Shown piece by piece: positions 3,595-40,342 of a stretch of 44,183 nucleotides of DNA. Every line of letters starts with the position of its first letter. The stretch's first letter is position 1. This stretch comes from Candidatus Dojkabacteria bacterium (GTDB lineage: Bacteria; Patescibacteriota; Dojkabacteria; GCA-002793355), in assembly GCA_030583825.1 (NCBI GenBank), contig CP129477.1:576308-620490 (forward strand), in the 5' to 3' direction. The position numbers were made by a program, and so were the translations under genes. Under the pieces are notes generated by a model that was given only the letters and a program-made list of their open reading frames with translations, was not told the origin of the DNA and did not search any database.

Positions 3595-3610
3595 TATAGG
3601 TACAAATAAA

Positions 3611-13083: not shown

Positions 13084-13157
13084 TATTGGTGCATTAATCA
13101 CCAATAAATGCTAGAATGCTATAGATAAAAACGTTCGTTAATTATTGTCTATAGCAT
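13084..13157 (+). promoter_or_regulatory. Two inverted repeats and an extended -10 at the head of the LamG array
   Basis: TATTGGTG-N7-CACCAATA (13084-13106); TGCTAGAAT (13109-13117); ATGCTATAGA/TCTATAGCAT (13116-13125 and 13148-13157), overlapping the ATG. Confidence 0.5.
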
Positions 13158-16100
13158 GTTTGAAGGAAAAAAGATTTACAAAATTTGGCAGTTATCCCTC
13201 TCTCTTTTTGTCGTGACCATGGTATTCTTGCCAATTTTTGTATTATCACTTACAAAATCTGTAAATGCCTCATGGTTTAATGATCAGTGGGCATACAGAC
13301 AAAAGATTTCTATTACAGGAAATTCTTCTGCTGCCACTGACTTCCAAGTCCAGCTAAGTATTAACACTCAAACTTTATATACGGCAGGAAAATTACAGCC
13401 TCATTGCGAAGATTTACGCTTTACCGACGGAGAAGGAAACTTGCTGGAATATTGGGTAGAAGATACAGTTACTCCGTGTTTTGCAGCGACAAATCAGATT
13501 ATTTGGGTCAGAGTGCCTTCATTGCTCGCAAACGGTACAGACATATACATGTATTATGGCAATCGCTTGGCAGAAAGAGCTGAAAATCCATACAAAACAT
13601 TCGATTTCTTTGACGACTTCGAGTACACAGCGTGGTACAACAATGCGTGGAGATTTAGAATTCCAATTCGTATTAATAATGAAAAACTCCAAGGAACACT
13701 TACCAACTTTCCGGTATATATTGATCTTTCGACACTCGGAAAAGACTTTTTTGATAGAGTTAAAGCGGATGGCACAGATATTGTTGTTACCAACAGTGAT
13801 GGAACGACAAAGCTTGACCGCGAATTGGTTAGTCTGAATATGGCGGATAGAACCGGCGTATTGTGGGTACGTGTGCCGACTTTAGCAAACTCTGCAGATA
13901 AGTACGTATACGTCTATTTTGGAAATGCCGCTGCGTCCGAAGTAAATACTTCAAGTGTGTGGAATAGTAACTACGTCATTATGCAGCACATGGAAAACAA
14001 TCCTGCAGGAAGCGCGCCGCAAATGCTTGATAGTACGGCAAATGGAAATAACGGAACGTCTAATGGAGCTATGCCTTCAAGTGCATTAATTAAAGGAAAA
14101 ATAGGAAAAGCTCTCGCATTTGATGGAAGCAATGACTATATTGCTATTCCACATTCATCATCACAGGAGCATCAAACTATTACATTTAGCGTGTGGGCAA
14201 GATCAAAGCCTACTACGTGGAATGCCAATGGCCCCGTACTTTCTAAGCGATCTGTCTCATTTGGAACCACAGAATATATTATCCATCCTGATCCCGACGG
14301 TCGTGATATTAAAGTATATGTTTCAACTGCGTCTACATGGAGATTCGTAAATAATACTCCAGCAAATATTCAGGAATGGAATCATTATGTAGGAACTTAT
14401 GATGGCTCTACTTTACGTTACTATGTAAATGGTACTTTTGTTGGATCTGCCAGCGCACCGGGAGCAAGAAACCTTAACGCAACACCACTGAATATTGGAG
14501 CAGATTTTTGTAATGCTTGTGGCTCACGATTTCTCTTCGGTGATATTGATGAAGTCCGTACGATGAATGTTGCAGCATCTGCTGATTGGGTTGCTGTTGA
14601 ATATAATAATCAAAATGATCCTGCAAGCTTTTATAAAGTCCTTCCAATAGAAAGTCCTGAAGGCTTGAATGCAAAGCTCGTGCGATGGGAAATGAGCGGA
14701 ACACCGCAGTTTTCTGGAAGTAGCATGTCGTTAACTAATTCAGCAAAGCTTCGAACAATTCAGCAATTTCCAATTGGGAAACGGTTTATGACCCGCCTGA
14801 CACAACAATCTACTTCCCTTGCTACTGCATTAGCAGGATTTTCCAATAGTGCATTAGGAAGTGAATTTACTGCAGACGATTCAGCATTTCTTAATTTCGA
14901 TAGCTCAACAACTCTCGAAGAAACTGGTGTTTCAGACGAAGGGGCAGTTTCTATAGCCACCTACGGCACCGAACCAACATCTGCGAGAGCAACAATTGGA
15001 ACGCTTGTCGCAAGTACGTATTTTAGGGTTGCCACTGGAAATAGTACTGCAACAACAAATCGTCCAAATGAAGCAATGAATGTTCGCTTTGAAAATAACT
15101 CCGCGGGTGAAACACTTACTGTAGATCATGTGATGGTTGGGAATTTCACGTTTGCATTTGTAGATTCGGGATCTGCCGGATCGGAAGAAAAGAGCATAGC
15201 ACCAATTGTTCACTGGAAACTGGACGAAACTGAGGGACAAATCTACAAATCATCCGGCATATTACCAGGTTACGACATGATGCGTGGGGGAACACTTGCA
15301 GTTGAGAATGGAGATCCCGCAAATAGAGAAAATTGTGTTGTTGGAAACTGTGCGCAATTCAACAGTGGTCATGCCGCTTTTATAGACAAAGCCTTGCCGG
15401 CAAAGAATAACGCAACTATTTCTCTGTGGATGTACACAAACAGAATTACACCAACAATTCGGCAAACTATTCTATCTGCCGGAGAAGCAAACTCAACAGG
15501 AGTTACTCTTGTGTTGCCTTCGCAATCTGAAACAAGTGCAAACCCAAATAAATTACGTTTTTATGTGAGGACATCTACCGCGTGGACATTCTGCGACAGT
15601 ACAACTTCGATTATTCCTCAGCAGTGGCATTACGTAACAACAACGTATGCCCATCCGAATGTGAATATTTACATTAATGGCAGGTTGGATGCCAGTTGTA
15701 TCATAGCCGGCAACTATCTTGCGCCAACAAGTAGCATGGCACTGGGTTCTTTCAATAGTTTGAATCAATATTACCTGAATGGCATGCTCGACGATGTCAA
15801 AATTTATGACTATGTACGTACGCAACAGCAAATTAACAATGAATATTCTTCTTTCGCAAATGTTCTGGGAACTTCTACAGACAGAAGAGAAGACGGACTT
15901 TCGGCGTGGTGGAAATTCGAAGAAATTTCGGGGACATCGGTTGTTGATAACGGAACCGGTAGAGTGAATGGTACATCTTCTGGCCCGACATTAGGTAATA
16001 CAGGAATATTTGGTAAGTCATACTTATTTGACGGAATCAACGATACAATTTCTGTTCCAGCAACTGCTGCGCTCGATACACAGTTTTTGACAATTTCAGC

Positions 16101-19100
16101 ATGGATCAACGCTGCAAGCTACGATCAGCAGGGAAATATCTTTGTGAAAACGACAAACGGCAGTGACAATACGCAATATCTCCTATATTTTGGCAATGCT
16201 GATAATGGCTACTTAAACTTCCGTACGGTAAATGCCTCTGCTGTACAAGATACGCTTGCTTTGGATGTAAGCTCTTCAGGACTTATTCCAAACCAGTGGA
16301 ACCATGTCGTTGCTGTGTATGATGGTCAGGAAAAGGCGATATACGTAAACGGTGAAAAGAAAGTCTCTGCACCGTATTCTCAAACACTCGCAGTAAACGC
16401 TGCAGGAATTTCCCGAATTGGATCACTTGCAAGCAGTTACTACTTTAGCGGACGAATAGATGAGTTACGTGTGTACAACAAAGGAATGTCTTTGCAGGAA
16501 GTGGAATCTCTATATCGAGAAAGACCTGAGCCAGTCGGCTATTTCGAATTTAACGAGCGAATTGGCCTTACCGCATATGACAACTTTGCACGAAATCCTT
16601 CGATGAGTTTTAGTGTATGGAAGCCTTTTCAATGGGGAAATGGCGTTGTGGGTGGAAGTGCTCGTGTATACGATGGAGCATATATTAGTCAGACAGCATG
16701 TACGTTCTGCCAAGTGGCAAGAGATAGCTTTTCACTCGCATTCTGGGCAAAAGTAGAAGATGGTGCATCTGTAGTGATTCCACTTATTGAAAAAATGGCA
16801 AACCAAGGTGGTGGCAGTGAGCTTGAAGGATATACTTTCTCCCTGCTCGATGATGGCGGTATCCGCGCTGGAATTCGCCAAGATGTAAGTAGTTCTACTA
16901 CCAGCATTACTGACTACAATACCTCTGTAGAATATGACGACGGTCAATGGCACCACTTTGCAATGGCAATTGATCGTAACTCTTTGGAACAGAAGATATT
17001 TGTAGATGGCACACTCATTGGAAATACTTCGCTTTCAGGCTTTACACAGAGTATCCAAAACCCCGGTAATTTCTATATCGGAACAAACAGTGCAGTTACT
17101 GACTTTGGAGACTTTCATATAGATTCATTCCGATTCTACGACTATGCGTTAACAGAGCAAGAAGTAAGCGCAATTAAAAATCAGCAGGTACTTGGACAGT
17201 CATCTGGCAGTGGAAATGCTACAGTGTCGGCATCAGTAAACATTTCGACAGACATTATTGCAGACGGAAGAACTTCAGCAGATGGAGAAGCATTTGCTGT
17301 ATCGGCAATTGACGGCAATACAATCACTGTTACCGGTACGGGAACAGACGGAACAACTGCCGCAACTCTGGGTAATGCGGTAACAATAGGTGACTTAGTA
17401 CTGCTTATTAACATGCAGGGAGACGGCACAAACTATTCAAACGTTGGGAGTTATGAATTCTGTCGAGTGCAATCAGTCGCAGGTGCAGTTATTGCATGCA
17501 CAGCGCCAATTTCAAAGGTTTATGGAGCATCGTCAAATAGCTCACTAAGTGGCCAAAAGGTCATGGTACAACGTGTTCCAGAATTTGAAAATCTGACGGT
17601 AACTTCTTCAGGAGTACTTACTGCAAATGCCTGGAATGGAACACTTGGAGGCATTTTTGCTGTTATTGCATCGGGAGATGTAACTGTTGAGTCCGGTGGA
17701 AGTATTACGATGAGTGCAAAAGGCTATACAGCGGCAACTGACTGGCAATGTAATTTCCCTTATCAAGGAGATTCATACACAGGTATAGGTATTAAATCTA
17801 ATGTTGCAAATAATGGAGGTGGCGGCGCTGGTCGGAATGAAAATTGTACCGACAACTGGGCAGGTGGCGCTGGCGGTGGTGGATATGGAACATCGGGAAG
17901 TAGTGGAAGCGCTGGTTCAGGAGGTGGTACTGCAGGAACGGGCGGTGGAACATATGGTGATACACAACTAACAAAGCTATTTATGGGATCTGCCGGTGGT
18001 ACCGGTGGTGGAGATGGTTGGGAAAGCAGTCAGATTAATGGGCAAAATGGTGGATCCGGTGGAGGTATTGTCTTTGTTCAATCCGGCGGAAATATTAGTG
18101 TTAATGCTGGAATCACTTCAAATGGGCAAACTCGAGGAAATGGTGATTATGCCGGTGCCGGAGGGGGTGCTGGTGGCTCAATTTATCTTCGTGCAAATAC
18201 TATGAATATTGGATCTTCATTAGTATCGGCAGTAGGGGGCAATGGGTCGGTTTCCGGTAGCTCTCGTGGAAACGGAGGAAATGGTGGCGTGGGAAGAATT
18301 CGCCTTGATGCTCTAACGGTAACAGGAACATCTTCACCAACCCCTGGATATACGGGTAATACCAATCAGTCAATGATTAATAGCCTTGCACTGAGTACTG
18401 TAAAAACTCAGAAAGAAACGAGAATTACAGCAAACCTACAAGGGGAATGGCTTTTTGATGAGCGATCTGGTGTAACAGCGCGGGACACAACAGCAAATGG
18501 ATCACACGCAACATTTGTAAATATAACCGACACAAACTGGGTTCTTGGCAATATTGGACGTGGAATAAGCCTCAATGGTGTGGATCAATATGCCACTGTT
18601 CCAAATGCTTCCCACTTTAATTCTACAGATTGGACAATTAGTGCATGGGTCAAAACAACCCAAACCTCCATGGGCAGAATTATTGTAAAAGAGGGAAATA
18701 CCCCAGGACAGCAGCGATTTTCGTTAGGAGTAAATGTCGTTACGCTTGGAAAAGCAGAAGTAAGGTTTGATGGTGGGACATTCAATACTGCAACAAGTAC
18801 GACAAATGTAAACGATGGGAAATGGCATCATGTCGTTGGCACATTTAACGATGCATCTAACCGGCTCAGAATCTACGTTGATGGACGCTTAGAGCAACAG
18901 ACAACAACTGCCCAGACCCCAACAGCAAGTGCAAATGATATTAATATTGGAAGATTCAGTGCTGCGGGACAATACCTTCAGGGGAGTATTGATCAAATTC
19001 GTTACTGGAATACGGAACTTACGCCTCGCGATGTGGCAATGGAATATAATCAGGGGCTCCCATTTGCTTGGTGGAGATTTGATGAAGGCCAAAGCACAAT

Positions 19101-19755
19101 TGTGAAAGACTTTAGTGGAAGAGGCAATCATGGAACGTTAACAAATATGGATCCTGTAACAGATTGGCTGACAGGAACAGATTGTAAACGCAATAGCTGC
19201 CTGGATTTTGATGGAACAAATGATCATATTCTTGTTGCGAATGAATCGCAGTTTGATTTTGAGCGAACAAGAGAATTCTCGGTATGCACTTGGTTTAGAC
19301 CCGATCAAATTGCTTCAACATCGCACACACTTGTAAGTAAACTGTCATCTGGAAATGTCGGATGGGAACTCACTGCATATGATGGCACAGCAGCAAGTGA
19401 CGGGATTCTTGTGTATTTAATTAACTCGTGGCCAGGAAATAGAATATCAGTTGCCTATGACAATGTTTTACAAGCGAACCAATGGCATCATATCTGCTTT
19501 GCTTACAACGGAAGTAGTGCGGCAAGCGGAGTTGCTATATATCTTAATGGAGTACTTTTAACATCACCTGTTGTGCAGATTTCTACTCTGAGCGGTAGCA
19601 TTTTGAATAATGAACCGTTGAGAATAGGATCTCGTCAAAGCAATGTTTTGCCTGCAGATGGGCGAATAGATGAAGTCAAAGTGTTTAATTACAGACTTAC
19701 GCAAGAAGATATATTAATTGACTATAACATGGGCGCTGCCCTTAGGTTCGAGTAA
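13156..19755 (+). CDS. Giant secreted DUF2341 + LamG-like jellyroll repeat protein A (2199 aa, includes a Gly-rich domain)
   Basis: Signal peptide; DUF2341 motifs W.YRQKI, DLRFTD, YWVE, IWVRVP, IYMYYGN (twice); six LamG-type modules (W.FDE...FDG..D...WHHV..YDG...IDEV..Y); ends DYNMGAALRFE. Confidence 0.9.
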   Translation: MFEGKKIYKIWQLSLSLFVVTMVFLPIFVLSLTKSVNASWFNDQWAYRQKISITGNSSAATDFQVQLSINTQTLYTAGKLQPHCEDLRFTDGEGNLLEYWVEDTVTPCFAATNQIIWVRVPSLLANGTDIYMYYGNRLAERAENPYKTFDFFDDFEYTAWYNNAWRFRIPIRINNEKLQGTLTNFPVYIDLSTLGKDFFDRVKADGTDIVVTNSDGTTKLDRELVSLNMADRTGVLWVRVPTLANSADKYVYVYFGNAAASEVNTSSVWNSNYVIMQHMENNPAGSAPQMLDSTANGNNGTSNGAMPSSALIKGKIGKALAFDGSNDYIAIPHSSSQEHQTITFSVWARSKPTTWNANGPVLSKRSVSFGTTEYIIHPDPDGRDIKVYVSTASTWRFVNNTPANIQEWNHYVGTYDGSTLRYYVNGTFVGSASAPGARNLNATPLNIGADFCNACGSRFLFGDIDEVRTMNVAASADWVAVEYNNQNDPASFYKVLPIESPEGLNAKLVRWEMSGTPQFSGSSMSLTNSAKLRTIQQFPIGKRFMTRLTQQSTSLATALAGFSNSALGSEFTADDSAFLNFDSSTTLEETGVSDEGAVSIATYGTEPTSARATIGTLVASTYFRVATGNSTATTNRPNEAMNVRFENNSAGETLTVDHVMVGNFTFAFVDSGSAGSEEKSIAPIVHWKLDETEGQIYKSSGILPGYDMMRGGTLAVENGDPANRENCVVGNCAQFNSGHAAFIDKALPAKNNATISLWMYTNRITPTIRQTILSAGEANSTGVTLVLPSQSETSANPNKLRFYVRTSTAWTFCDSTTSIIPQQWHYVTTTYAHPNVNIYINGRLDASCIIAGNYLAPTSSMALGSFNSLNQYYLNGMLDDVKIYDYVRTQQQINNEYSSFANVLGTSTDRREDGLSAWWKFEEISGTSVVDNGTGRVNGTSSGPTLGNTGIFGKSYLFDGINDTISVPATAALDTQFLTISAWINAASYDQQGNIFVKTTNGSDNTQYLLYFGNADNGYLNFRTVNASAVQDTLALDVSSSGLIPNQWNHVVAVYDGQEKAIYVNGEKKVSAPYSQTLAVNAAGISRIGSLASSYYFSGRIDELRVYNKGMSLQEVESLYRERPEPVGYFEFNERIGLTAYDNFARNPSMSFSVWKPFQWGNGVVGGSARVYDGAYISQTACTFCQVARDSFSLAFWAKVEDGASVVIPLIEKMANQGGGSELEGYTFSLLDDGGIRAGIRQDVSSSTTSITDYNTSVEYDDGQWHHFAMAIDRNSLEQKIFVDGTLIGNTSLSGFTQSIQNPGNFYIGTNSAVTDFGDFHIDSFRFYDYALTEQEVSAIKNQQVLGQSSGSGNATVSASVNISTDIIADGRTSADGEAFAVSAIDGNTITVTGTGTDGTTAATLGNAVTIGDLVLLINMQGDGTNYSNVGSYEFCRVQSVAGAVIACTAPISKVYGASSNSSLSGQKVMVQRVPEFENLTVTSSGVLTANAWNGTLGGIFAVIASGDVTVESGGSITMSAKGYTAATDWQCNFPYQGDSYTGIGIKSNVANNGGGGAGRNENCTDNWAGGAGGGGYGTSGSSGSAGSGGGTAGTGGGTYGDTQLTKLFMGSAGGTGGGDGWESSQINGQNGGSGGGIVFVQSGGNISVNAGITSNGQTRGNGDYAGAGGGAGGSIYLRANTMNIGSSLVSAVGGNGSVSGSSRGNGGNGGVGRIRLDALTVTGTSSPTPGYTGNTNQSMINSLALSTVKTQKETRITANLQGEWLFDERSGVTARDTTANGSHATFVNITDTNWVLGNIGRGISLNGVDQYATVPNASHFNSTDWTISAWVKTTQTSMGRIIVKEGNTPGQQRFSLGVNVVTLGKAEVRFDGGTFNTATSTTNVNDGKWHHVVGTFNDASNRLRIYVDGRLEQQTTTAQTPTASANDINIGRFSAAGQYLQGSIDQIRYWNTELTPRDVAMEYNQGLPFAWWRFDEGQSTIVKDFSGRGNHGTLTNMDPVTDWLTGTDCKRNSCLDFDGTNDHILVANESQFDFERTREFSVCTWFRPDQIASTSHTLVSKLSSGNVGWELTAYDGTAASDGILVYLINSWPGNRISVAYDNVLQANQWHHICFAYNGSSAASGVAIYLNGVLLTSPVVQISTLSGSILNNEPLRIGSRQSNVLPADGRIDEVKVFNYRLTQEDILIDYNMGAALRFE

Positions 19756-19814
19756 GACCTCGCTCCGGTCTGCAAAAAGAAAAAACTTTTTGCAGAACCG
19801 TCGCTCGGTTCTAA
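19753..19814 (+). repeat. 62-bp hairpin spacer element, type A
   Basis: TAA-GACC-TCGCTC-CGG-TCTGCAAAAAG-A6-CTTTTTGCAGA-A-CCG-TCGCTC-GGTTC-TAA; identical to 30189-30250. Confidence 0.92.
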
Positions 19815-19854
19815 GAGGTGAGTAAAAATGACTCACAAAGTGAAAGATAAAAAA

Positions 19855-25131: not shown

Positions 25132-25190
25132 CACGTCGCTCGACTTCTCAAAACGAGAAAACGTTTTGAGAAAGTCTCGCTCCGTATTAA
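25129..25190 (+). repeat. 62-bp hairpin spacer element, type B
   Basis: TAA-CACG-TCGCTC-GAC-TTCTCAAAACG-AGAAAA-CGTTTTGAGAA-A-GTC-TCGCTC-CGTAT-TAA; same geometry as type A with compensatory stem changes. Confidence 0.9.
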
Positions 25191-25226
25191 AAACGTGGGA
25201 AATAACCCACAAAGTGAAAGTAACAA

Positions 25227-28200
25227 ATGAAAGGACAAATAAACATTAACAAAATTTGGAAATGGTTAGGGCAGATTCTTCCTGTTTCGCTATTCTTTGT
25301 TCTTCTTGGATGGGTATCATTTACGAAAAGTGTAAATGCTTCCTGGTTTAACGAATTGTGGAGATACCGTCAACGAGTGGCTTTAGGATCGGTAACAACA
25401 GAATTAAGTGGTTACCAGGTTCAGTTAACAGGTATTAATACGCAATCGCTCTACAATGCTGGAAAAATCAAAGCAAACTGTGAAGACTTACGCTTCACTG
25501 ACAATGAAGGAAAGCTACTTGAATACTGGATAGAAGACGACGGCACAACCTGCCAAAATGATACGTCAACCGACGTGTGGGTAAAGACAACTCGGTTAGC
25601 TATCGGTGGTACAGCAATTTACATGTATTACGGAAATCCGGGAGCGGAGGCGTATCAAAGTCCTCACAATACATTTGAATTCTTCGATGGTTTTGATTCT
25701 GCGACACTTGACTCTTCTATCTGGGCAAGCTCCCAAGATCCGGCAATATCTTCAGGAAAATTACTTCTCAATAATGACAAAGCAGTACGCTCGTATGCTA
25801 CATTCGCTGCAAATTCACGCATTATCGTAAGAGCAAGCCAGCAAAGCACTGGTTTACGCAATGGATATCTTGGGTTTTCAAATGCAGTGTTGAGTAGCTC
25901 GTATATCGCTGATGACGCTATGGCCTATCAGTTTGACTCATCAACTGGTGGAAACTTCGAAGTCGTGTTTGGAAACGAAGGAACGACTTCTACGGATACA
26001 TTGTTACTACCTGAAAATTCATCAGATAATGAGTTTGAAATTGGCTGGTTGTCTAGCAGAATTGATTTCTTTGCTAACAATGATCTTCATACTTCGACAT
26101 CATCGGCCACCCATATTGCGGATGAGTCACTCAATATTCGTATGGAAAACTCTTCTGCAACAGAGACTTTATCTATTGATTGGGTAGCTGTCGCAAAATA
26201 TGCGGCGTCTTTGCCGGCAACAACAAGCTTTGGCACTGAAGAAAAAGGCAATGGGCCGGTTGTGTATCTTGATTTCGACGAGAGTGCAGGAACAACAGCA
26301 TTTGATAAATCTGGAAGTGGAAACAACGGAACATTGGTTAATGACCCATCAAGAGTATCCGATTGTATAAAAGGTAACTGCTTAAACTTCGACGGAACTA
26401 ACGATTTAGTGACAGTTGCTAATAATCCAAGCTTTAATTTTGGATCTGGGTGGACAATTTCTGCATGGGTGAATCCGGCGACGTCACAGACAACAAGCCC
26501 GACAATTTTTAGATACGGAACAAGCGCATCTTCTGAAGTTTTTATTCTTGATGCTCCATCTGGATTATGGAGAGTTGCTGCAAGAAATACTTCAAATGTT
26601 GCAACAATCATGTCCACAAGTGAGCCTATGGTTCCGAATAAATGGGTATATGTAGTAGCAACATTCAACGGCTCGACGCTAAGCCTTTGGCTTGATGGCA
26701 AACTTATTGCAACTCAGGCATTTTCAGGGACACCAAAAACAATTGGAAATACTACAATTGCGATAGGAAACTCTCCAGAGAACAGTAATGCGCTGCTTCG
26801 ATACCGAGGTCAGATTGATGAAGTGAAAATCTACGATAGAGCATTGTCACAATCGGATATTTATAAGGAATTCAGTCTTTATCACAATGTGCTGGGAGCC
26901 TCTGCGAACATTCAGCGCGATGGGCTTGCGGCGTGGTGGAAAATGGATGAAGCATTGTGGAATGGAACATCTGGAGAAGTAATTGATTCATCGCTAAATG
27001 GAAATAATGGATCACGAGGTGGAAATGTTACAACTTCGGGAGGCACTTTAGGAAATGCCGGCATCTTCGATGGCAATGATGACTATGTTGTAACATCGTA
27101 CATGTTGCCGACAAATAACGGAACAATGGCTGCATGGCTTTCAACAACTGCTCCAGCAACAACTCAGGTTGTGATTGGCCAGGAATCCTTAACTGCTGCA
27201 ACAGAAAATGGAATAAAAATCGTAACGTCTAAAATCCAGTGCCAAAAGAGAACAGCGACAGATACAATTTTGCTCACTTCTGCAACAACAGTTGTTGCAA
27301 ATACCTGGTATCACGCAGTATGTACATATTCTTCGGTAGATGGGGTAAAGCTTTATGTGAATGGCGTGCTCGAGGCGCAGTCTACGGACAAAGCGAACCT
27401 TACAGCTAACGGAACCTTTAGGTTCCACATTGGGGCGCATAGACATTCGGGTGGTTATGTAAGCGACTTTTCTGGAAAAATAGACGATGTTCGTATTTAC
27501 ACACGCGCAATTTCCGGCGAAGAAGCAAAAGATATATATACATTCACTCCTCCATCAACAGGAACATGGAAATTCGACGAAACTATCGGCACATCCTTCG
27601 CAGATACATCTTTGTCACAATTTACAGGAACACTTACTAATACAGTTGATTCTGACTGGACGACAGGAAAGATTGGCAATGCTATACGGTTTGATGGCAG
27701 TACTTCTTATGGAACAGTTACGCATGACGTAAAGCATAACATTCTTGCAGGAGGATCTTTTACTATCTCTGCATGGGTAAAAACGAATGGAACAATTTCT
27801 GCCGTGCAACATATTGTTGGAAAAGGCGGTAGTAGCGCAGGTGGAGTAGGCTATAACCTTTACTTTACTGCTGCTGGAAACATCGCCTGTGGTATTGATG
27901 ACGACGCGACTTCATTCCCCGAAGATGTCGCAACCTCTGCGTCTGACTATGACGACAGCAACTGGCACTTTGTTATCTGTACCAAAACTCAAGCACGCTT
28001 GGAGGTCTACGTAGATGGCCTTCTTGCTGGGGCAGATACGTCTTTATCGTCTACAGGCTCGCTCGCAAATACAGAAAACTTACGCTTTGGAGGTCAGGGA
28101 ACATCATACTTTAACGGCATTTTGGATGAAGTAAATCTCTACACGCATGCAATGCCGTACGAAACAATTCAACGAATGTATTCTCAACAAAGACCAACAT

Positions 28201-30191
28201 ACGGTGTATTAAGTACAAACGGGTTGGTAGGCTATTGGAAATTTGATGAAACTTCTGGCACTGCTGTGACAGATGGCTCAGGGTTGGGAAATCATGGAAC
28301 TGCCGTTAATGGTGCAAGTATTACGTCGGGAATAAGTGGAAATGCTCGCGACTTTAGCGGTTCGAGCCAATATATTTCGTTCTCTTCGCCAAGCGGTATC
28401 CCTCTTGGGGGATCGCAATATTCCATTTCAGCTTGGTTCTGGGCAGACTCAGGTGGATCTCGTGGAATCGTCGGGTGGGGGAACTTTGGAGCAAGTAATC
28501 AAGTAAATGCCTTACGACTTGATGAAACTTGTTGTTTCAGACATTACTGGTGGGGAAATGACTTGGATGTAAATGTAGGTTCAACGACGGGAAAATGGAA
28601 TCATGTTGTGGTCACTTACGACGGTGCAACTCGCCGGTTATATTTTAATGGAGCACAGGCCGGTTCTCTTAATTCATCGTCAATTAATGTCCCTCATGCG
28701 AATAACTTGCGTATTGGTTCTACTAATAACGGAGAGTTTTTTGACGGAAGGATTGACGAATTAAGCATATGGAATAGGCCACTCTCTGCGGGAGAAATTA
28801 GCTTACTGTACAACATGCAGTCAGTATCTTCGATTGCAGAAGGAAGTAATAAAACACTTTCTGTAACGACAGAAGTGCAGTCAAAAGGTTCAGTAATGCA
28901 GCTGCTCTTTGACCATAAATCGGGGGCAGTTGCGTCTGATTCCTCTGGAAATAATTATGCCGGAACACTTCAAAATATGAGTGCTTCCAGTTGGGTTAAA
29001 GGATATCTGGGGTCAGCGCTTAGCTTTGATGGTGATAATGACTATGTCTCATTTGCTAATTCTTCGGTTGCAAATGTGACAGGAAGTACGATGACTATCT
29101 CGTTTTGGTTATATCCAAAAACATTTGCTCATCAAAATACAATTATTCATAAAGATCAGCAGTATTCGTTTAATATTGATACTTCAGGAAACGTTGCGTG
29201 GGCAGAAAGCTCGAATTTCAGTTACTCAAACTTCGGATACAGCAATATTGGTCTTGTAACAAATCAGTGGCAGCATGTCATGTTAGTGAAAAATGGATCA
29301 AATATAAAGATATATCGAAACGGTATTCTCCGCGCAGAAAAAACTTTTGGTGGAAACCTTTCTTCAACAGGAAATATTCTTGCGGTTGGATGTTACTTTT
29401 ATAGCGGTGTTTGTGACAATATTGTTGACCAAAACTTTGAGGGAATGCTCGATACACTAAAAATATGGAATACTGCTCTCAGTCCACGAGACGCGGCAAT
29501 AGAATATAATGCAGGAATGCCTATTGGTTACTGGAAATTTGATCGTGGCGAAGGGAACATTGCGCACGATTATAGTGGCAATGCATTTCATGGAACACTT
29601 ATGAACATGGATCCTGCGAATGACTGGCTTGCTGCTTCTAATTGTAAATTTAACGCATGTCTGGATTTTGACGGCAGTAATGACTATATTTCAGTTCCTG
29701 ATGACAATGCTCTCGACTTTACGTCAACAATGAGTATTTCTATGTGGATATATCAGCGTAGTGCTATCGCTAATGGTTACAGAATTGTAGACAAAGGAAC
29801 TGCTGGGTTAGACAATGGGTTAAACTTTGATACGTATAATGGCGTTAATGGCAGAGGATTACGTTTATGTGGCGCTGGCGGATGTTATACAGCAAGCGGG
29901 CAACGGGAATTAAATCGTTGGTATCATGTTGCTTTGGTATTTAACAATGGCACTTTACAGTTTTATATAGATGGAAAACTTGATACTTCAACAACGACAA
30001 CCAATCCGGTTTTGTTTACAAATAATTTAGATTTGAGAATTGGTGCCGCGCATGTGGGCTGTTCCGGAGCCTGTGGAAACACAGAATATTTTAATGGAAG
30101 GATGGATGATGTCAGAATTTATAGCTATCCTCTGACAGAAAATGATATTAAAAGAGATTATAACTTAGGTGCTGCGTTGCGTTTCGAATAA
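25227..30191 (+). CDS. Giant secreted DUF2341 + LamG repeat protein C (1654 aa)
   Basis: Signal peptide, DUF2341, six LamG modules; ends DYNLGAALRFE. Confidence 0.9.
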   Translation: MKGQININKIWKWLGQILPVSLFFVLLGWVSFTKSVNASWFNELWRYRQRVALGSVTTELSGYQVQLTGINTQSLYNAGKIKANCEDLRFTDNEGKLLEYWIEDDGTTCQNDTSTDVWVKTTRLAIGGTAIYMYYGNPGAEAYQSPHNTFEFFDGFDSATLDSSIWASSQDPAISSGKLLLNNDKAVRSYATFAANSRIIVRASQQSTGLRNGYLGFSNAVLSSSYIADDAMAYQFDSSTGGNFEVVFGNEGTTSTDTLLLPENSSDNEFEIGWLSSRIDFFANNDLHTSTSSATHIADESLNIRMENSSATETLSIDWVAVAKYAASLPATTSFGTEEKGNGPVVYLDFDESAGTTAFDKSGSGNNGTLVNDPSRVSDCIKGNCLNFDGTNDLVTVANNPSFNFGSGWTISAWVNPATSQTTSPTIFRYGTSASSEVFILDAPSGLWRVAARNTSNVATIMSTSEPMVPNKWVYVVATFNGSTLSLWLDGKLIATQAFSGTPKTIGNTTIAIGNSPENSNALLRYRGQIDEVKIYDRALSQSDIYKEFSLYHNVLGASANIQRDGLAAWWKMDEALWNGTSGEVIDSSLNGNNGSRGGNVTTSGGTLGNAGIFDGNDDYVVTSYMLPTNNGTMAAWLSTTAPATTQVVIGQESLTAATENGIKIVTSKIQCQKRTATDTILLTSATTVVANTWYHAVCTYSSVDGVKLYVNGVLEAQSTDKANLTANGTFRFHIGAHRHSGGYVSDFSGKIDDVRIYTRAISGEEAKDIYTFTPPSTGTWKFDETIGTSFADTSLSQFTGTLTNTVDSDWTTGKIGNAIRFDGSTSYGTVTHDVKHNILAGGSFTISAWVKTNGTISAVQHIVGKGGSSAGGVGYNLYFTAAGNIACGIDDDATSFPEDVATSASDYDDSNWHFVICTKTQARLEVYVDGLLAGADTSLSSTGSLANTENLRFGGQGTSYFNGILDEVNLYTHAMPYETIQRMYSQQRPTYGVLSTNGLVGYWKFDETSGTAVTDGSGLGNHGTAVNGASITSGISGNARDFSGSSQYISFSSPSGIPLGGSQYSISAWFWADSGGSRGIVGWGNFGASNQVNALRLDETCCFRHYWWGNDLDVNVGSTTGKWNHVVVTYDGATRRLYFNGAQAGSLNSSSINVPHANNLRIGSTNNGEFFDGRIDELSIWNRPLSAGEISLLYNMQSVSSIAEGSNKTLSVTTEVQSKGSVMQLLFDHKSGAVASDSSGNNYAGTLQNMSASSWVKGYLGSALSFDGDNDYVSFANSSVANVTGSTMTISFWLYPKTFAHQNTIIHKDQQYSFNIDTSGNVAWAESSNFSYSNFGYSNIGLVTNQWQHVMLVKNGSNIKIYRNGILRAEKTFGGNLSSTGNILAVGCYFYSGVCDNIVDQNFEGMLDTLKIWNTALSPRDAAIEYNAGMPIGYWKFDRGEGNIAHDYSGNAFHGTLMNMDPANDWLAASNCKFNACLDFDGSNDYISVPDDNALDFTSTMSISMWIYQRSAIANGYRIVDKGTAGLDNGLNFDTYNGVNGRGLRLCGAGGCYTASGQRELNRWYHVALVFNNGTLQFYIDGKLDTSTTTTNPVLFTNNLDLRIGAAHVGCSGACGNTEYFNGRMDDVRIYSYPLTENDIKRDYNLGAALRFE

Positions 30192-30250
30192 GACCTCGCT
30201 CCGGTCTGCAAAAAGAAAAAACTTTTTGCAGAACCGTCGCTCGGTTCTAA
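30189..30250 (+). repeat. 62-bp hairpin spacer element, type A (second copy)
   Basis: Base-for-base identical to 19753-19814. Confidence 0.92.
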
Positions 30251-30285
30251 AACGTGGGAAATAACCCACAAAGTGAAAGTAAAAA

Positions 30286-33200
30286 ATGAAAGACAGGATA
30301 AGCATTAACAAAATTTGGAAATGGATAGGAGTGTCTCTTCCTCTTTTCGTGGTATTTATACTTCTTGGGTGGGCATCATTTACAAAAAATGTAAATGCGG
30401 TGTGGTTTAACGACTTATGGCAGTATCGCCAAAAAGTAACATTAGGCACTGTCACAACAGAGTTAGTCGGGTACCAGGTGCAATTAACAGGAATTAATAC
30501 GCAAGCTCTGTATAACGCAGGAAAGTTGCAGGCAAATTGTGAGGATCTTCGCTTTACAGATATAGACGGAAAGTTGCTTGAGTACTGGGTAGAAGATAAA
30601 GGAGTCACCTGCCAAAATAGTACTTCTACTGATATTTGGGTCAAAACAACGCGACTTGCTGTTGGAGGAACCACTCTGTATATGTATTATGGCAATTCGA
30701 CGGCTTCGTCATATCAAAGTGCAAGAAAAACGTTCGACTTTTTCGAAGATTTTAATGGTGTGACTCTTGACTCGACCGTATGGACAAATTCCGGAAGTCC
30801 GTCTTTATCATCAGGAAGGCTACAACTGCTCAATGATCAGGCAATTCGATCGTTTGCGGAATTTAGCGCAAATACGCGAATTATTATGCGTGCAAGTCAG
30901 CCATCAACAGCGTTAAATACCGCAATTATGGGACTCTCGAATACAGTATTAGCTTCACCATTTAATACTGACGACTCTCTTGGTTTTAACTTTGATTCAA
31001 CAACAGGTAGCAACTTCGAAGTTATGCTCAGCAATGATGGAACGACTGCAACGAATAATACAAGTTTGGCAGAAAATACCGCAGATAATGAGTTCGAACT
31101 TGGATGGGCTCCTTCCACAATTACTTACTTTATTAACAACACTTCTCGAGGAAGCTCTTCAGTAAGCGGGAATATTGCTAATGAGCCAGTAAATATTCGT
31201 ATTCAGAATTCTTCGGCAACAGATACCTTTTCGGTTGATTGGGTAGGCATTGCAAAGTATGCGTCGTCGTTACCTGCGACAGTATCGTTTGATACGGAAG
31301 AAAAGGGAAGATCCCCGATTGTGTATCTTTCTTTCGACGAAGGGCAAGGTCAGGAAGTAAGGTCTACAGCAGGAAAAGGATTAATCGGATATTTAGGTGG
31401 TTCAGCGTCTGTAGAAGCGGCTGATCCAGTATGGCGTGATGATTGTATAAAAGGAAACTGCTTATATTTTGATGGTACAAACGATATTCTCGATATTGCA
31501 CACGATGCAATTATGAACCTTGGCACTGGAGACTTTACAGTCAGTATGTGGGCAAAATATCCATCGCAAGTTGGAGGAACATTTAACTACAGCATGCTTG
31601 TAACAAAAGCTTCTAATCCGAATCCTCCATATGAGGGACTCACAGTCTTTGTTGATGAGCCGACAAATGCGAATCTTCAATTCCGTGTAAACTCTGCAAA
31701 TGCTCTGAGCACCACAGTTGGTGGGTTAAATAACTACGAGTGGAAACACTTTATTTTCCGCCGTCAGGGCACTGAACTTCGAGTGTATGTGAACGGAAAA
31801 TCTATTGCGTCAGGGACTGTAGCGAGTATCAATATTAATAATACTGCGCCGCTTCGTTTTGGATCAAACCATATTGTAACAACAAGTCAGAATTATCAAG
31901 GGTATATTGATGAATTCAAGCTTTGGAATGTCGCACTTACCGAGGCAGAAATTCTCCAACAATATAATTCAACTTCTACAGTAATAGGCGAGAGCAAAAA
32001 ACCGCAAATTAACGGCCAAGTCGCGTGGTGGAAGATGGATGAAGCGCTGTGGAATGGAACATCAGGCGAAGTTAAGGATGCCGGAGGGTTGGGGATGAAT
32101 GGAACTTCTACAGGAAGTGCCGCTGTAGGGGTGGGAAAATATGGCAATGGAGGGAGCCTTAATGGCTCAACTGCGTATGTTAATGTCGCAGATAATTCAT
32201 ATCTTGATAGGAATGATATCGGACTATCTCTATGGGTAAACCGCGCTGTATCAACTGGATTTCATGGAATAATCGCAAAAGATACAAATGCCGTATGGAA
32301 CGGACAGACAAACTATCAATTACTCTTTACAAATGGCGGAGCACCGGGTACAACGGCAAATGGAGCACTTGAGCTCCGCTGGGAAACTAGTGGAGGTGGA
32401 AAGGTCGTTGCAAACACGCAAGGAGTAGCTTTTAACTCCACAAATACTTGGTATCACATCGCTGCAAATCGCTGGCAAATGCCTTCTGGAGAATACGCCG
32501 CGTCTCTCTTTGTTAACGGAGTAGAGCAGGTACTGTCATGTTATTTTGACCCAGGAAGTGGATGGGTACAGTATGAATGTAACAAAATTCCTGGAACAGT
32601 CGTGCATAACAATGGGAACTTTCAAATTGGCAGATATGGCGGAGGACAATATTTTAATGGAAGAATCGATGAAGTGAGAGTATTTAGCCGAGCACTGAAC
32701 GCAGAAGAGGCTCAAACACTAACACAGTATCTTCCCTCTGTAATCCAGCACTGGAAATTTGACGAAAGAACCGGAAATACAGCAAAAACTTCAGCTATTG
32801 GGGGTGTCGATACCACGCTCACAAATATGGAAAATACAGATTGGGTAACAGGAGTCCGGGGTAATGCGCTTACTTTTGATGGGGTAGATGAATATGCTTC
32901 TGCAGGAAATCTTGTATCTTCAGCGTTGCGACAGTTTACTTTCAGTTGGTGGGTAAATGTAAATTCTTTTACAAATGCAAATTATATGTCGCTTTTCTGT
33001 CAGGCCGAAGGAGTGTATCCGTCATCTTTGAATAACTTCTGTTTTTATGCCGGGAATGGAGCATCTGCATTTGGATTACAGGGGAAATGGTCTGATGGTA
33101 CAGCACTTGATGCTCGAACTAATATTCCGTTTGGCACTAGCACTTGGAAAATGATCACCGTGACTTATGATGGCACTACATTACGCCAGTATGTCGACGG

Positions 33201-35367
33201 AAAACAAATAAATAGTGTCAGTTACGCGAATAAGTCTCTTGCAAACGCAAATACATTCACTATTGGAAGAGGGTACGCATATCCAAGCGCTCTTGTAACA
33301 ACCTACTTTGACGGCAAAATAGACGACTTTAAAGTGTATAACTATGCAATGTCAGCAGTGGATATTCTTGCAGACTATTCAAATGACGCCTCACTTTCTT
33401 CATCTGAAACCGGGCTGATACGACATTATCAAATGGAAGAATTAGGTTGGAATGGAACAACCGGCGAAGTAATAGACTCTTCTGGCTATTCAAACCATGG
33501 AACAGCGATGAATGGGGCAACAACTTCGACAATGAGCAAAATCGGTCTTCGTGCGGGGCAACTTGATGGCAACAATGACTGGATTAATATTGGAGATCCA
33601 GGAAGTGATGTGCAAACCATTGCGTTCTGGTTCAATACATCAAATGCTGCAACCGATAAAAGACTACTTAGTGCAACAAATGGAGGGACAGGTAAATTTT
33701 CGTTGAGATTTTCAAGTAATACATTACAAGCATGGGATGGAGGGGTATGGAGAACTATTTCCACAGCATTTGTTACAACAGGAACTTGGTATCACGTAGC
33801 TCTTGTATTTGGTGAAGGGGGAAATGGTGTTACAACCTATATCAATGGTGTACAAGACGGAAGTAGTAGCGCAACATTTAACAATTTTAGCGCAAATTTT
33901 GGTCTTGGAGTTATTTTTCAAGGCTCACATGGAGGATATTATAGTGGCTATATCGATGACTTTCGGTTTTATACCGAACCAGTGGATACAGCTACAATTA
34001 CGAGGCTTTCAAGTAATGATCCAAGCGCAGCACAAAGGCTTTTTGCCGGATCTGAAATAAAAGCTCCTACTGCTTTAATTCATTTGAAAATGGATGAAAA
34101 ATCTGGAACAACAGCAATAAACAATGGCACTATGCTTTCAAGTGGAAATGCCACATTAAATAATTTCAGCTCTACTCCGTGGAGATTCGGAAAAATCGGA
34201 AATTCATTACTTTTTGACGGAACAGACGACTTTGTTTCAACGCCAGATCATGCGAGTTTTGTGTGGGGAAATGCTGTTACTGTATCTACGTGGTTTAAAA
34301 CAGGAAGTATTACGACTGCGAAATCTCTTGTTGCGAAAACGGGAGAATCTTCGGGAATGGAATTTCATCTTAGTCTTGAAACTGACGGTCGTGTCAGGTG
34401 TTGGGTATCTAATAACGGTACAGCTTCAGGTACTTTTGCGTATAGTAGAGCAGTAAATTACACCGACAATACGTGGCATTTTGCATCCTGCGTATATAAT
34501 GGCTCAACGCTCCAGGTGCAGGTTGATGGGCATACAGGAACGGCAGTTGCTAGAACTGGGGCTATATTTAATGGCACGCAGCCCTTAACAATCGGGGGCA
34601 ATACAGCATGGACTGGTGCCAACTGGATGTTTAATGGTCAAATAGATAATGTAAAAATCTGGAATTCTGCGCTTTCTATTCGAGATATCATGGTTGAATA
34701 TAACCAAGGAAGGCCGTTACATTGGTGGAACTTTGATAGTGGCGAAGGAACTGTTTCTTACGATATTGCCAGTAAAATTAATGGAACGATGACTAACTTT
34801 ACTCCATCAACTGCATGGAGAAGTGGAGCAGACTGCAAGCTAAATAAATGCTTGCAATTCGATGGAATAAACGATTACATAACCACTCCTCCGATATATA
34901 TTGGCACAGAATATACTATATCTGGCTGGTTTAAAACGAGTGCTGCACATGCCGGGGGAGGAGATATCTTTGCACTTACAAGTTCTGGTTCTCTCCATGG
35001 AGTCCTTATTGAAATGACTGGCGGAGAGGTTCGATTTTTGCATAGAATGCCCACGGGAAACATCGGTGGCCCGAACATTTTTTCACCATTAACAAACTAT
35101 AATAATGGTCAGTGGCATCACTTTGTGGCAACAGGGCAAGGAAGCGGAGCAATGAATCTATATCTAGATGGACGGTTGGTCGGAACAAATACGACGGGTG
35201 CACCTTTTATGCAGACATTATTTTTGACAATGGGAAGACTTTCTCAGACCTCGGACACTCGCTACTTTAATGGAATGATAGATGAAATCAAGGTATTCCC
35301 GTACGCCTTTAATGAAACTGATGTGAAAGTGGATTATAACTTGGGGGCTGCGTTACGATTTGAATAA
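30286..35367 (+). CDS. Giant secreted DUF2341 + LamG repeat protein D (1693 aa)
   Basis: Signal peptide, DUF2341, six LamG modules; ends DYNLGAALRFE. Confidence 0.9.
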   Translation: MKDRISINKIWKWIGVSLPLFVVFILLGWASFTKNVNAVWFNDLWQYRQKVTLGTVTTELVGYQVQLTGINTQALYNAGKLQANCEDLRFTDIDGKLLEYWVEDKGVTCQNSTSTDIWVKTTRLAVGGTTLYMYYGNSTASSYQSARKTFDFFEDFNGVTLDSTVWTNSGSPSLSSGRLQLLNDQAIRSFAEFSANTRIIMRASQPSTALNTAIMGLSNTVLASPFNTDDSLGFNFDSTTGSNFEVMLSNDGTTATNNTSLAENTADNEFELGWAPSTITYFINNTSRGSSSVSGNIANEPVNIRIQNSSATDTFSVDWVGIAKYASSLPATVSFDTEEKGRSPIVYLSFDEGQGQEVRSTAGKGLIGYLGGSASVEAADPVWRDDCIKGNCLYFDGTNDILDIAHDAIMNLGTGDFTVSMWAKYPSQVGGTFNYSMLVTKASNPNPPYEGLTVFVDEPTNANLQFRVNSANALSTTVGGLNNYEWKHFIFRRQGTELRVYVNGKSIASGTVASININNTAPLRFGSNHIVTTSQNYQGYIDEFKLWNVALTEAEILQQYNSTSTVIGESKKPQINGQVAWWKMDEALWNGTSGEVKDAGGLGMNGTSTGSAAVGVGKYGNGGSLNGSTAYVNVADNSYLDRNDIGLSLWVNRAVSTGFHGIIAKDTNAVWNGQTNYQLLFTNGGAPGTTANGALELRWETSGGGKVVANTQGVAFNSTNTWYHIAANRWQMPSGEYAASLFVNGVEQVLSCYFDPGSGWVQYECNKIPGTVVHNNGNFQIGRYGGGQYFNGRIDEVRVFSRALNAEEAQTLTQYLPSVIQHWKFDERTGNTAKTSAIGGVDTTLTNMENTDWVTGVRGNALTFDGVDEYASAGNLVSSALRQFTFSWWVNVNSFTNANYMSLFCQAEGVYPSSLNNFCFYAGNGASAFGLQGKWSDGTALDARTNIPFGTSTWKMITVTYDGTTLRQYVDGKQINSVSYANKSLANANTFTIGRGYAYPSALVTTYFDGKIDDFKVYNYAMSAVDILADYSNDASLSSSETGLIRHYQMEELGWNGTTGEVIDSSGYSNHGTAMNGATTSTMSKIGLRAGQLDGNNDWINIGDPGSDVQTIAFWFNTSNAATDKRLLSATNGGTGKFSLRFSSNTLQAWDGGVWRTISTAFVTTGTWYHVALVFGEGGNGVTTYINGVQDGSSSATFNNFSANFGLGVIFQGSHGGYYSGYIDDFRFYTEPVDTATITRLSSNDPSAAQRLFAGSEIKAPTALIHLKMDEKSGTTAINNGTMLSSGNATLNNFSSTPWRFGKIGNSLLFDGTDDFVSTPDHASFVWGNAVTVSTWFKTGSITTAKSLVAKTGESSGMEFHLSLETDGRVRCWVSNNGTASGTFAYSRAVNYTDNTWHFASCVYNGSTLQVQVDGHTGTAVARTGAIFNGTQPLTIGGNTAWTGANWMFNGQIDNVKIWNSALSIRDIMVEYNQGRPLHWWNFDSGEGTVSYDIASKINGTMTNFTPSTAWRSGADCKLNKCLQFDGINDYITTPPIYIGTEYTISGWFKTSAAHAGGGDIFALTSSGSLHGVLIEMTGGEVRFLHRMPTGNIGGPNIFSPLTNYNNGQWHHFVATGQGSGAMNLYLDGRLVGTNTTGAPFMQTLFLTMGRLSQTSDTRYFNGMIDEIKVFPYAFNETDVKVDYNLGAALRFE

Positions 35368-37212: not shown

Positions 37213-40342
<3,130 letters not shown>

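Follow-up and report, generated by a model that had tools for sequence, protein, structure and literature searches.

Architecture of the LamG array

A tandem array of four genes for giant DUF2341/LamG proteins was analysed in the genome of a Candidatus Dojkabacteria bacterium, a sludge bacterium whose genome forms a single contig of 1,090,595 bases and is 94% complete. The array lies within a stretch of 44,183 nucleotides (positions 576,308 to 620,490 of contig CP129477.1, assembly GCA_030583825.1), hereafter the window, in whose numbering gene coordinates are given. Four successive forward-strand open reading frames (ORFs), A to D, occupy 22.2 kb at 589–612 kb of the genome, or 2% of its 1.09 Mb, and their limits in the ORF list and translations match exactly the span of 13156..35367 given in the original prediction. 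Gene A (13156–19755; 2199 amino acids, aa) encodes a predicted signal peptide, a DUF2341 domain, an additional DUF2341 and LamG, a jelly roll, three LamG domains, a Gly-rich putative beta-solenoid and two further LamG domains. Gene B (19828–25131; 1767 aa) encodes a predicted signal peptide, DUF2341, a jelly roll, three LamG domains, a second DUF2341 with a jelly-roll-like region and two LamG domains. Genes C (25227–30191; 1654 aa) and D (30286–35367; 1693 aa) both follow the canonical order of predicted signal peptide, DUF2341, jelly roll and six LamG domains, with D forming a block mosaic relative to its nearest relative, P0005.

The domain content is well beyond chance in all four proteins, with Laminin_G_3 matched at E values of 5e-115 to 2e-145 and DUF2341 at 1e-19 to 1e-38. 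Near the N-terminus, DUF2341 (PF10102) scores 70.9–132 bits against a gathering cut-off of 23.4, and the remaining Pfam matches are all to lectin-fold families (pentaxin, sialidase N-terminal, neurotoxin HCN-type lectin and trans-sialidase C-terminal). The genome has six DUF2341 and 29 Laminin_G_3 matches; every one of the former and 24 of the latter (corresponding to 23 domains, as one is split in two) fall in the array. Sludge communities from eight studies contain this genome, with no RNA data set listed among them. Contigs of sequencing runs X11, X13 and X19, each from an independent study, match the array at ≥99% identity, and it is therefore not an assembly artefact.

A LamG hidden Markov model (HMM) built from the window counted six LamG domains in A, C and D, and five in B. 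The scheme originally proposed for all four proteins, with one variable slot, X, following the third LamG, holds for domain order in B, C and D and fails in A, where an extra DUF2341 (about aa 175–270; Pfam E = 4.8e-9) and an extra LamG (aa 323–479; LamG HMM), together at 13678..14592, had been overlooked. This region lies between the first DUF2341 and the jelly roll, and is a gap in B, C and D in a four-way alignment. The coordinates of the slot itself agree with the domain parse. In A, it is a Gly-rich region with no LamG and no Pfam family (aa 1338–1806, 469 aa; 17167..18573), while in B it comprises a second DUF2341 followed by about 260 aa (aa 1008–1378; 22849..23961; Pfam DUF2341 E = 1.5e-18). 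The B slot resembles the N-terminal module of the same protein (BLASTP, 27% over 149 aa, E = 7e-15), with the match extending into the start of the jelly roll, and scores weakly with the LamG HMM (E = 0.02). In C and D, slot X is occupied by a LamG domain (aa 1044–1191, 28356..28799, LamG HMM E = 3e-37; and aa 1094–1238, 33565..33999, E = 4e-30). All of these features lie on the forward strand.

Position-specific LamG HMMs built from 42 canonical homologs recognised positions 1, 2 and 5 in A–D and positions 3 and 6 less clearly, but did not recognise the fourth LamG of C or D. The fourth LamG of C was ambiguous (105 for the position 2 model versus 103 for position 4), its nearest module being the fourth LamG of P0005 (P0005.L4) at 38%, and that of D carried no position signal (59–68 bits across all six models). 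In A and B, the slot is bounded by a weakly position-3-type LamG and a clearly position-5-type LamG, and is therefore homologous to the canonical LamG4. The positional homology of the slot was thus borne out, with other adhesin-type modules standing in for the fourth LamG in A and B. What had been taken for different LamG modules in the slot of C and D is just the fourth of their six canonical LamG domains.

A family spread across the Patescibacteria

A word-indexed search with C returned 278 proteins at E ≤ 1e-10 among 8000 scored candidates, all named only "hypothetical" or "DUF2341 domain-containing protein", from Dojkabacteria, Moranbacteria, Parcubacteria, Roizmanbacteria, Daviesbacteria and unclassified Patescibacteria. 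The listed matches reached E values down to 0 at 24–38% identity, mostly covering 55–100% of C. Local HMMs were used to parse 122 of these proteins (the best 120 listed, which already included B and C, plus A and D), revealing a canonical plan of a DUF2341 domain (U), a beta domain of ~200 aa (b) and six LamG domains (L1 to L6), in proteins of about 1650–1750 aa. The exact plan, without long gaps, was found in 42 of 117 parsed homologs, a count from which A–D were excluded, as was P0006, which duplicates D but has a shorter start. C and D match this plan exactly and are therefore ordinary family members. Inserts other than LamG are found at several places in the family, most of them separating DUF2341 from the jelly roll, following LamG1 or preceding the last LamG.

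The U+b module is more widespread than the canonical plan, with a full phmmer scan of 1.84 billion representative sequences recovering 7829 proteins, 2980 of them at E ≤ 1e-10, and many giants of 5000–7400 aa carrying internal U+b copies, up to eight per protein. Searches of genome contigs with the whole of protein C yielded only distant LamG proteins of other phyla. The phage collection held one weak U+b-like match, in the record of a Methanomicrobiales-host virus (BK063669.1, 25411–26238), where a hypothetical protein matches the DUF2341 plus jelly-roll module (25.5% identity over 96% of its length, E = 8e-9). A–D display every defining feature of the DUF2341 plus multi-LamG family that was tested, and are old tandem paralogs of a Patescibacteria-wide family of exported, non-enzymatic, beads-on-a-string proteins.

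Export, termini and folds

The N-termini of A–D consist of a basic stretch, about 20 hydrophobic residues and V-N-A, followed by (S/A/V)-W-F-N-(D/E), and the mature start is of the W-x-N-D-x-W-x-Y-R type. The DUF2341 start motif was located in the first 160 aa of 96 of the 122 family proteins, with a hydrophobic stretch upstream of it in 93 of the 94 that could be tested and an Ala usually two residues ahead of the Trp. These N-termini fit Sec export with cleavage by signal peptidase I.

All four proteins end in DYN(L/M)GAALRFE, as originally predicted, and the family tail is of the type YN-x-G-A-x-x-RF. The idea that the two ends are constant export and assembly modules did not survive, as the linker after every LamG reads like EYNQGLPFAWWRFDE and A–D simply stop after the first strand of a would-be seventh LamG, making the C-terminal motif a shortened ordinary inter-LamG linker plus first strand, while U+b also occurs internally. 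The genome encodes three sortases, and sortase-anchored wall proteins were considered and rejected as a description of A–D, which end in ...GAALRFE without a hydrophobic tail.

The DUF2341 plus jelly roll of C (aa 39–343; 25341..26255, forward strand) was modelled with a predicted local distance difference test score (pLDDT) of 86.4 and a predicted template modelling score (pTM) of 0.83. In this module, DUF2341 would form a beta-sandwich packed on the jelly roll, and it is the jelly roll that fills the hit lists of the U+b model. This jelly roll (model residues about 112–288) matches lichenase 3i4i (VIA Z 19.7, root-mean-square deviation 2.4, 165 aligned), O-glycanase 6t2o (VIA Z 19.4, Foldseek E = 1.4e-9) and many other structures of the GH16 glycoside hydrolases (VIA Z 17–19.7, model residues 111–288). 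The catalytic motif of GH16 enzymes is ExDx(x)E. This motif was absent from all four of A–D and present, anywhere in the sequence, in one of the 122 family proteins, and a 28-row alignment held no column that was ≥70% acidic inside the jelly roll (model residues 118–288), the only such columns in the scanned range being 116, at the DUF2341/jelly-roll junction, and 300, in the downstream linker. Thus A–D share the jelly-roll fold with GH16 but are not members, and a GH16 enzyme was rejected for want of the motif and the conserved acidic residues. The b domain is, as judged from its sequence, a binding or structural domain and not an enzyme. Pfam and NCBIfam searches found no catalytic domain elsewhere in A–D, only lectin-fold families. 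The original view of the proteins as modular and exported is supported.

The slot of A was modelled with a pLDDT of 79.7 and a pTM of 0.80, confidently over aa 1351–1734 (fragment residues 14–397), and in this model looks like a beta-solenoid. At middling Z, it matches the beta-helix secretion domains of filamentous adhesins, namely the FHA TPS domain (1rwr; VIA Z 11.0, root-mean-square deviation 2.9, 118 aligned) and those of HxuA, HMW1 and EtpA, while Foldseek against the PDB gave only low-scoring tailspike matches (TM about 0.15). The NCBIfam model gliding_AgmC_N (NF047640) matches it at 84.2 bits (E = 9e-24, model positions 102–403 of 412; cut-off 275), suggesting that the slot shares ancestry with the N-terminal domain of AgmC, a gliding protein of Myxococcus, without being an AgmC equivalog; a search of the AgmC literature turned up nothing relevant. 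A promiscuous extracellular module, it recurs in giant surface proteins, with 147 homologs from Chloroflexota (RHS and CARDB proteins), Patescibacteria, archaea and other groups. In BFVD, it also resembles a PA14-domain protein of a prasinovirus (Bathycoccus virus; E = 3e-20, TMq 0.61, 24% identity), and weaker matches were to 'collagen-like' proteins of other giant viruses.

Mosaic structure and exchange of LamG modules

The original prediction described a fixed scaffold, which stands for domain order but not for sequence. The signal peptide, U, part of b, the L5–L6 linker and the C-terminus are well conserved among A–D (about 45–80%), whereas the cores of the LamG domains share about 20% identity outside pairwise patches. 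These patches link different partners along the proteins: B and D in L1 (64–86%), A and B at position 2 (about 52%) and position 5 (about 70%), and C and D at the N-terminus, so that D, for example, has B as its partner at L1 and P0005 at L3 and L5. For comparison, 2729 LamG pairs between different proteins (13 proteins of the subfamily) have a median identity of 22.9% (5th–95th percentile 17–29%), only 15 of them reach ≥45%, and the maximum inside one protein is 33.5%.

The comparison of D with P0005 illustrates the pattern most fully. Identity per domain is 68% in U, 51% in b, 32% in L1, 28% in L2, 69% in L3, 27% in L4, 71% in L5 and 34% in L6, and along the length it moves from 36–86% in U/b through ~30% (L1), 10–46% (L2), 43–80% (L3), 20–33% (L4) and 63–80% (L5) to 23–43% (L6), with the steps falling sharply at domain borders. 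In several close family pairs, LamG positions likewise fall into two identity classes, of about 70% or about 21–43%, while U is 66–84% identical in five of nine close pairs and 44–84% over all nine.

Similarities also cross positions. For example, the last LamG of A (aa 1968–2191; 19057..19728, forward strand) is of the first-position type, aligning with the first LamG of P0005 (residues 344–560) at 61% identity across 224 aa (E = 8e-78) and forming a clade with P0005_L1 and P0007_L1 at a support of 99 in the Shimodaira–Hasegawa-like approximate likelihood ratio test (SH-aLRT). Other cross-position pairs include C.L2 with the L3 of a protein from genome G033 (53%) and P0007.L6 with P0010.L3. 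In a tree of 77 modules (a quick search with SH-aLRT support only), three of the 11 strongly supported clades mix positions, and a fourth may reflect deletion. The exchange extends to another LamG protein, the fifth in this genome, encoded 430 kb from the array (G000:C1:1042708-1045548). It has 946 aa and four LamG domains but lacks DUF2341; its third LamG is 70% identical to D.L5 and its first is 43–44% identical to C.L3. Its gene sits between those for an ABC ATPase and an FtsW/RodA protein.

Given that the module similarities are incongruent with one another, the simplest reading is that whole LamG modules have been exchanged repeatedly, among paralogs and genomes and from one position to another. 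The linkers, conserved around ...YN-x-G-x-P-x-x-WWKFDE, are the only DNA-level repeats between modules (families D9, D11 and D14) and are the likely joints of exchange.

The exchange events are old, since the paralogs share at most 87% DNA identity, over 143 nucleotides, the genome lacks a reverse transcriptase and the array is invariant. The contigs from the three studies differ by one substitution and no insertions or deletions, a result that, as contigs drop rare variants, establishes the presence of this form rather than the absence of others. A diverged relative in run X20 has its listed changes in the post-slot linker of A, the start of position 5 in B, L2 and the L4–L5 linker of C, and L1 of D, and these are not concentrated in the slot. 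The strain-level variation in slot X that had been anticipated was therefore not seen in the contigs of the three studies. Diversity-generating retroelement-type hypervariation was rejected, as no RVT_1 match was found in the 94%-complete single-contig genome and the array contains no near-identical repeats. Recent gene conversion among the paralogs was likewise rejected on the basis of their best DNA identity and of the lack of DNA tandem repeats, none of which were found. Separately, one X11 contig runs from the L5–L6 linker region of D (34670) back into that of A (19129), its shorter arm measuring 39 letters, and this conserved linker is also where other contigs break off (19064, 19167 and 34621). 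The X11 junction might represent a recombinant, the gene of a relative or a chimera created during assembly at a repeat.

Conserved association with a fibre and a membrane protein

Directly upstream of the array lies the gene for P0123, a secreted, repeat-rich protein of 1700 aa (7862..12964, forward strand). Five Cys-containing units of the form GDLYWG...CD.SE.NCGW (GDLYWG-x-x-L-x-CD-x-SE-x-NCGW) are spread along its length, and Tandem Repeats Finder detected no DNA tandem repeat. The label 'fibre protein', under which it was first described, has no backing from Pfam, where neither a family nor Peptidase_S74 was matched, and is based on the repeat-rich sequence and on a weak match to the NCBIfam model Bdello_MAT_N (NF053851; E = 0.0025, 17.6 bits versus a cut-off of 60). 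P0123 alone, and none of A–D, matches this N-terminal model of the mosaic adhesive trimer (MAT) proteins of Bdellovibrio.

Downstream of D, P0124 (35642..36640, forward strand) is a single-pass membrane protein of 332 aa, whose family comprises only 13 proteins with 47 invariant alignment columns and a strongly conserved ectodomain. The LytR_C domain (PF13399) first assigned to it was not recovered by Pfam at E values up to 5, nor did the 13 members carry any precomputed Pfam match. In the ESM Atlas, P0124 has a feature score of 0.88 to LytR_C-bearing clusters and one structural match (residues 226–332, TM 0.43), a lead suggesting that it is possibly LytR_C-like. PHROGs gave no match for the fibre, the membrane protein, the A slot, the U+b module or P0125, a further surface-protein candidate described below.

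A conserved neighbourhood, as expected by the original prediction, was recovered around P0124. Of seven other genomes with a strong P0124 homolog, four (G033, G025, G076 and G077) encode a fibre homolog and a LamG protein directly beside it, with the fibre homologs at 52–54% identity in the best segment and 59–63% in another comparison. Two further genomes have a fibre-like gene within 7 kb and no LamG in the stretch fetched (G069, where the stretch is at a contig end, and G042), and one (G080) has neither in the 15 kb available. The outer flanks vary between genomes (NusG/L11/L1, DnaB/PGA_cap or PRPP synthase), and the shared adjacency between differing flanks therefore indicates that the fibre, LamG and membrane-protein genes travel together. 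A tblastn search with all window ORFs in nine relative loci found only these three classes. In the relatives, LamG usually precedes the fibre on the same strand and the membrane-protein gene converges on them, whereas here the fibre, A–D and the membrane protein follow one another on a single strand. With one LamG gene per cluster in the syntenic relatives and two in G011, the array of four copies represents a local expansion. The two LamG genes of G011 neighbour a gene for a 1201-aa protein (L007:13709-17314) with a Peptidase_S74 domain (endosialidase chaperone), as found in phage tail fibres and in one MAT subfamily.

Other features of the window

The array is located inside what is normally the 16S–23S spacer, the rRNA genes being scattered. 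The 16S gene (1–1050) is cut at the window start and is followed by the ORF of an FkbM-type methyltransferase (1096–2070; Pfam) and by tRNA-Ile and tRNA-Ala (2181–2415). About 35 kb of protein genes, the entire array among them, separate these tRNAs from the 23S gene (37218–40339), after which come PIN and GH18 genes and the 5S gene (43240–43353). The 23S match spans 3122 bases against a 2925-position model, with ~200 extra bases that are possible insertions. A 338-aa protein beside the cluster (2626–3642, reverse strand) contains a CHASE extracellular sensor domain (E = 3.5e-25). It is followed by the gene for P0125, a 981-aa protein (3611–6556, reverse strand) with weak beta-helix/NosD-like matches, a C-terminal hydrophobic segment and, after it, KRKKK, which looks like a sorted or anchored surface protein. 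A GT2 glycosyltransferase gene (6834..7544, reverse strand; Pfam E = 6.8e-23) is divergent from the fibre gene. The reported proximity of GT2 and FkbM genes was thus confirmed in the window; in the nine fetched loci of relatives, neither these nor GH18 had a tblastn match (GT2 at E ≤ 1e-8). A scan for promoters and terminators gave counts at or below shuffle expectation.

A candidate host-recognition repertoire

The lineage is known for living on other cells. We consider it somewhat more probable than the contrary that A–D form a combinatorial repertoire of surface lectins or adhesins that acts with the fibre and possibly with the membrane protein, binding glycans or proteins of a host or of the surrounding matrix; attachment to a host is itself an inference. 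Mechanistically, the U+b end or the conserved L5–L6 end may dock the exported string to a common partner, which could be the fibre, the membrane protein or the wall, while the variable LamG modules, the beta-solenoid of A and the extra U-b of B would offer different binding surfaces. Eight or nine successive jelly rolls would make a string of an estimated 50–60 nm. Four copies would multiply the range of ligands, the obvious candidates being host envelope glycans or proteins, given the 1.09-Mb genome of a host-dwelling lineage. A related role has been proposed before. Lectin-like proteins of Patescibacteriota have been speculated to mediate attachment (in a passage of PMC12911398), and part of PMC11809585 suggests a similar function in general terms for giant DUF2341-bearing proteins.

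A stronger version, in which the LamG strings, the trimeric-type fibre and the LytR_C-like protein constitute a single host-recognition apparatus of Patescibacteria whose specificity is re-dealt, on an evolutionary timescale, by exchange of LamG cassettes at the linkers among paralogs, positions and genomes, is unlikely, though worth stating. If true, it would be a cellular counterpart of the mosaics of phage receptor-binding proteins and of Bdellovibrio MAT fibres, the array would represent a host-range repertoire, and module content would predict the hosts of an uncultured episymbiont.

Several observations weigh against a surface repertoire built by module exchange and working with these neighbours. 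No LPXTG-type tail, C-terminal transmembrane segment or lipobox that could anchor A–D was recognised. The invariance of the array across the contigs of three studies gives no sign of ongoing switching. DUF2341 is distributed patchily: of 41 genomes, made up of this one (G000) and 40 relatives, 21 contain it, as do only three of 10 from the same family. P0124 homologs at E ≤ 1e-10 occur in only 13 of 221 genomes of the class, so the cluster is not a core organelle. The synteny described above was examined around membrane-protein homologs. Finally, very uneven selection, instead of exchange, could account for part of the block mosaics, although real exchange is favoured by cross-position matches that reach 61–70%.

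Other functions were weighed against the same evidence. As exported, large proteins without enzymatic domains that take up 2% of the genome, A–D might instead be building blocks of a surface layer (S-layer) or sheath, with LamG serving lattice contacts rather than ligand binding. Their only solved relative by sequence (4qvs, E = 9e-10) is indeed annotated as an "S-layer domain-containing protein", and P0124 may carry a cell-wall-related LytR_C-like domain. However, four copies with LamG cores only ~20% identical and with shuffled modules fit poorly into a regular lattice, about half of the relatives searched lack the family, and neither SLH nor any other wall-binding domain was found with Pfam or NCBIfam, making a structural envelope improbable. 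A role in polymer capture, with the LamG strings acting as carbohydrate-binding modules that hold chitin or glucan for enzymes such as the GH18 of the window, would suit the lectin and carbohydrate-binding folds and the GH16-like jelly roll. The reference list of PMC10066038 (reference 41) also names a Laminin_G_3 module in this capacity, in an arabinofuranosidase. The GH18 gene lies 6 kb downstream, but it had no tblastn match in nine relative loci, the conserved neighbours are a fibre and a membrane protein rather than glycosidases, and no catalytic domain is fused to A–D, leaving capture quite improbable.

It is very unlikely that A–D are tip or shaft adhesins of type IV pili, as has been suggested for archaeal DUF2341 proteins. 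Archaeal type IV pilus loci contain DUF2341 proteins that are proposed tip adhesins (according to part of PMC4858521), transformation-defective mutants of M. maripaludis include transposon insertions in a DUF2341 gene of the epd locus (a passage of PMC10133366), and the Dojkabacteria genome does have a type IV pilus locus. However, its PilB-type ATPases and N_methyl pilins are at 883–891 kb, about 270 kb from the array, none of the four genomic N_methyl (PF07963) matches (E up to 0.1) falls in A–D, the N-termini of A–D look Sec-type, and the conserved neighbours are not pilus genes. Least credible of all is the model originally proposed, of a fixed export and assembly scaffold with a single specificity slot between LamG3 and LamG4. 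Within the array, the only non-LamG replacements do sit at the canonical LamG4, and the N-terminus and the L5–L6 linker are the best conserved parts. Yet non-LamG inserts occur at several places across the family, A has a further insert near its N-terminus, the modules at positions 1, 2, 3, 5 and 6 have been exchanged too, and the C-terminal motif is an ordinary linker. The strict version of the model is contradicted by the family-wide inserts and by the exchange of modules.

Relation to known systems

A combinatorial lectin or adhesin repertoire has partial parallels in several systems. The nearest are the DUF2341/LamG-like jelly-roll proteins of other Patescibacteria, giant forms of which are mentioned in a part of PMC11809585 and with which A–D share their sequence family, Pfam content, N-terminal start and C-terminal tail. 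The array differs in its four tandem copies and in the replacement of the fourth LamG in two of these. The earlier suggestion of an undescribed system thus needs qualification, as the family is widely annotated and attachment by lectin-like proteins of Patescibacteria is already in print. The mosaic structure is what is chiefly new here. Neither the canonical plan nor module exchange nor the three-gene cluster was found described in the literature, in a search that extended neither to subscription journals nor to the supplements of PMC11809585 (Table S13, Fig. S8), which may list such proteins.

In Bdellovibrio, the MAT proteins are numerous paralogous surface proteins with conserved and chimeric binding parts, one of which binds prey glycans (as described in part of PMC10769870). 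The likeness lies in a paralogous, mosaic adhesin repertoire of a bacterium that lives on other bacteria. In contrast to the MAT proteins, which are trimeric beta-prism fibres with variable tips, A–D are strings of LamG jelly rolls. TafC, in which a LamG domain at the tip of haloarchaeal tat-fimbriae is the proposed adhesin (in a passage of PMC11821415), is another point of comparison, as the NCBIfam TafC model matches the LamG domains of A–D at E values of 2e-33 to 5e-76. However, these matches score 116–256 bits against a cut-off of 410 and involve the LamG part only, and A–D have neither a Tat signal nor a pilin-like N-terminal domain; they are therefore not members of TafC. Giant ORFs of the Omnitrophota carry laminin_G_3 or discoidin domains (part of PMC10066038) and share with A–D the combination of host-dependent nanobacteria and very large extracellular proteins with LamG-type adhesion domains. 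Those ORFs are single, over 10 kb long and encode several transmembrane helices, whereas A–D are 5–6.6 kb in length and have one signal peptide each and a six-LamG plan. Taken together, these comparisons suggest that A–D would work most like the Bdellovibrio MAT proteins and phage receptor-binding proteins, though built from different parts.

To our knowledge, little has been established about how ultra-small episymbiotic bacteria recognise and hold their hosts beyond the involvement of type IV pili. The locus described here provides a concrete and widespread candidate for host recognition, with a defined protein plan, cassette-shuffled modules and two conserved partner genes, and it turns the vague statement that genomes of the candidate phyla radiation encode lectin-like proteins into single LamG units that can be tested. 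Should the proteins prove to be structural or nutrient-binding, their mosaic would still be a useful case of domain-level recombination in very small genomes.

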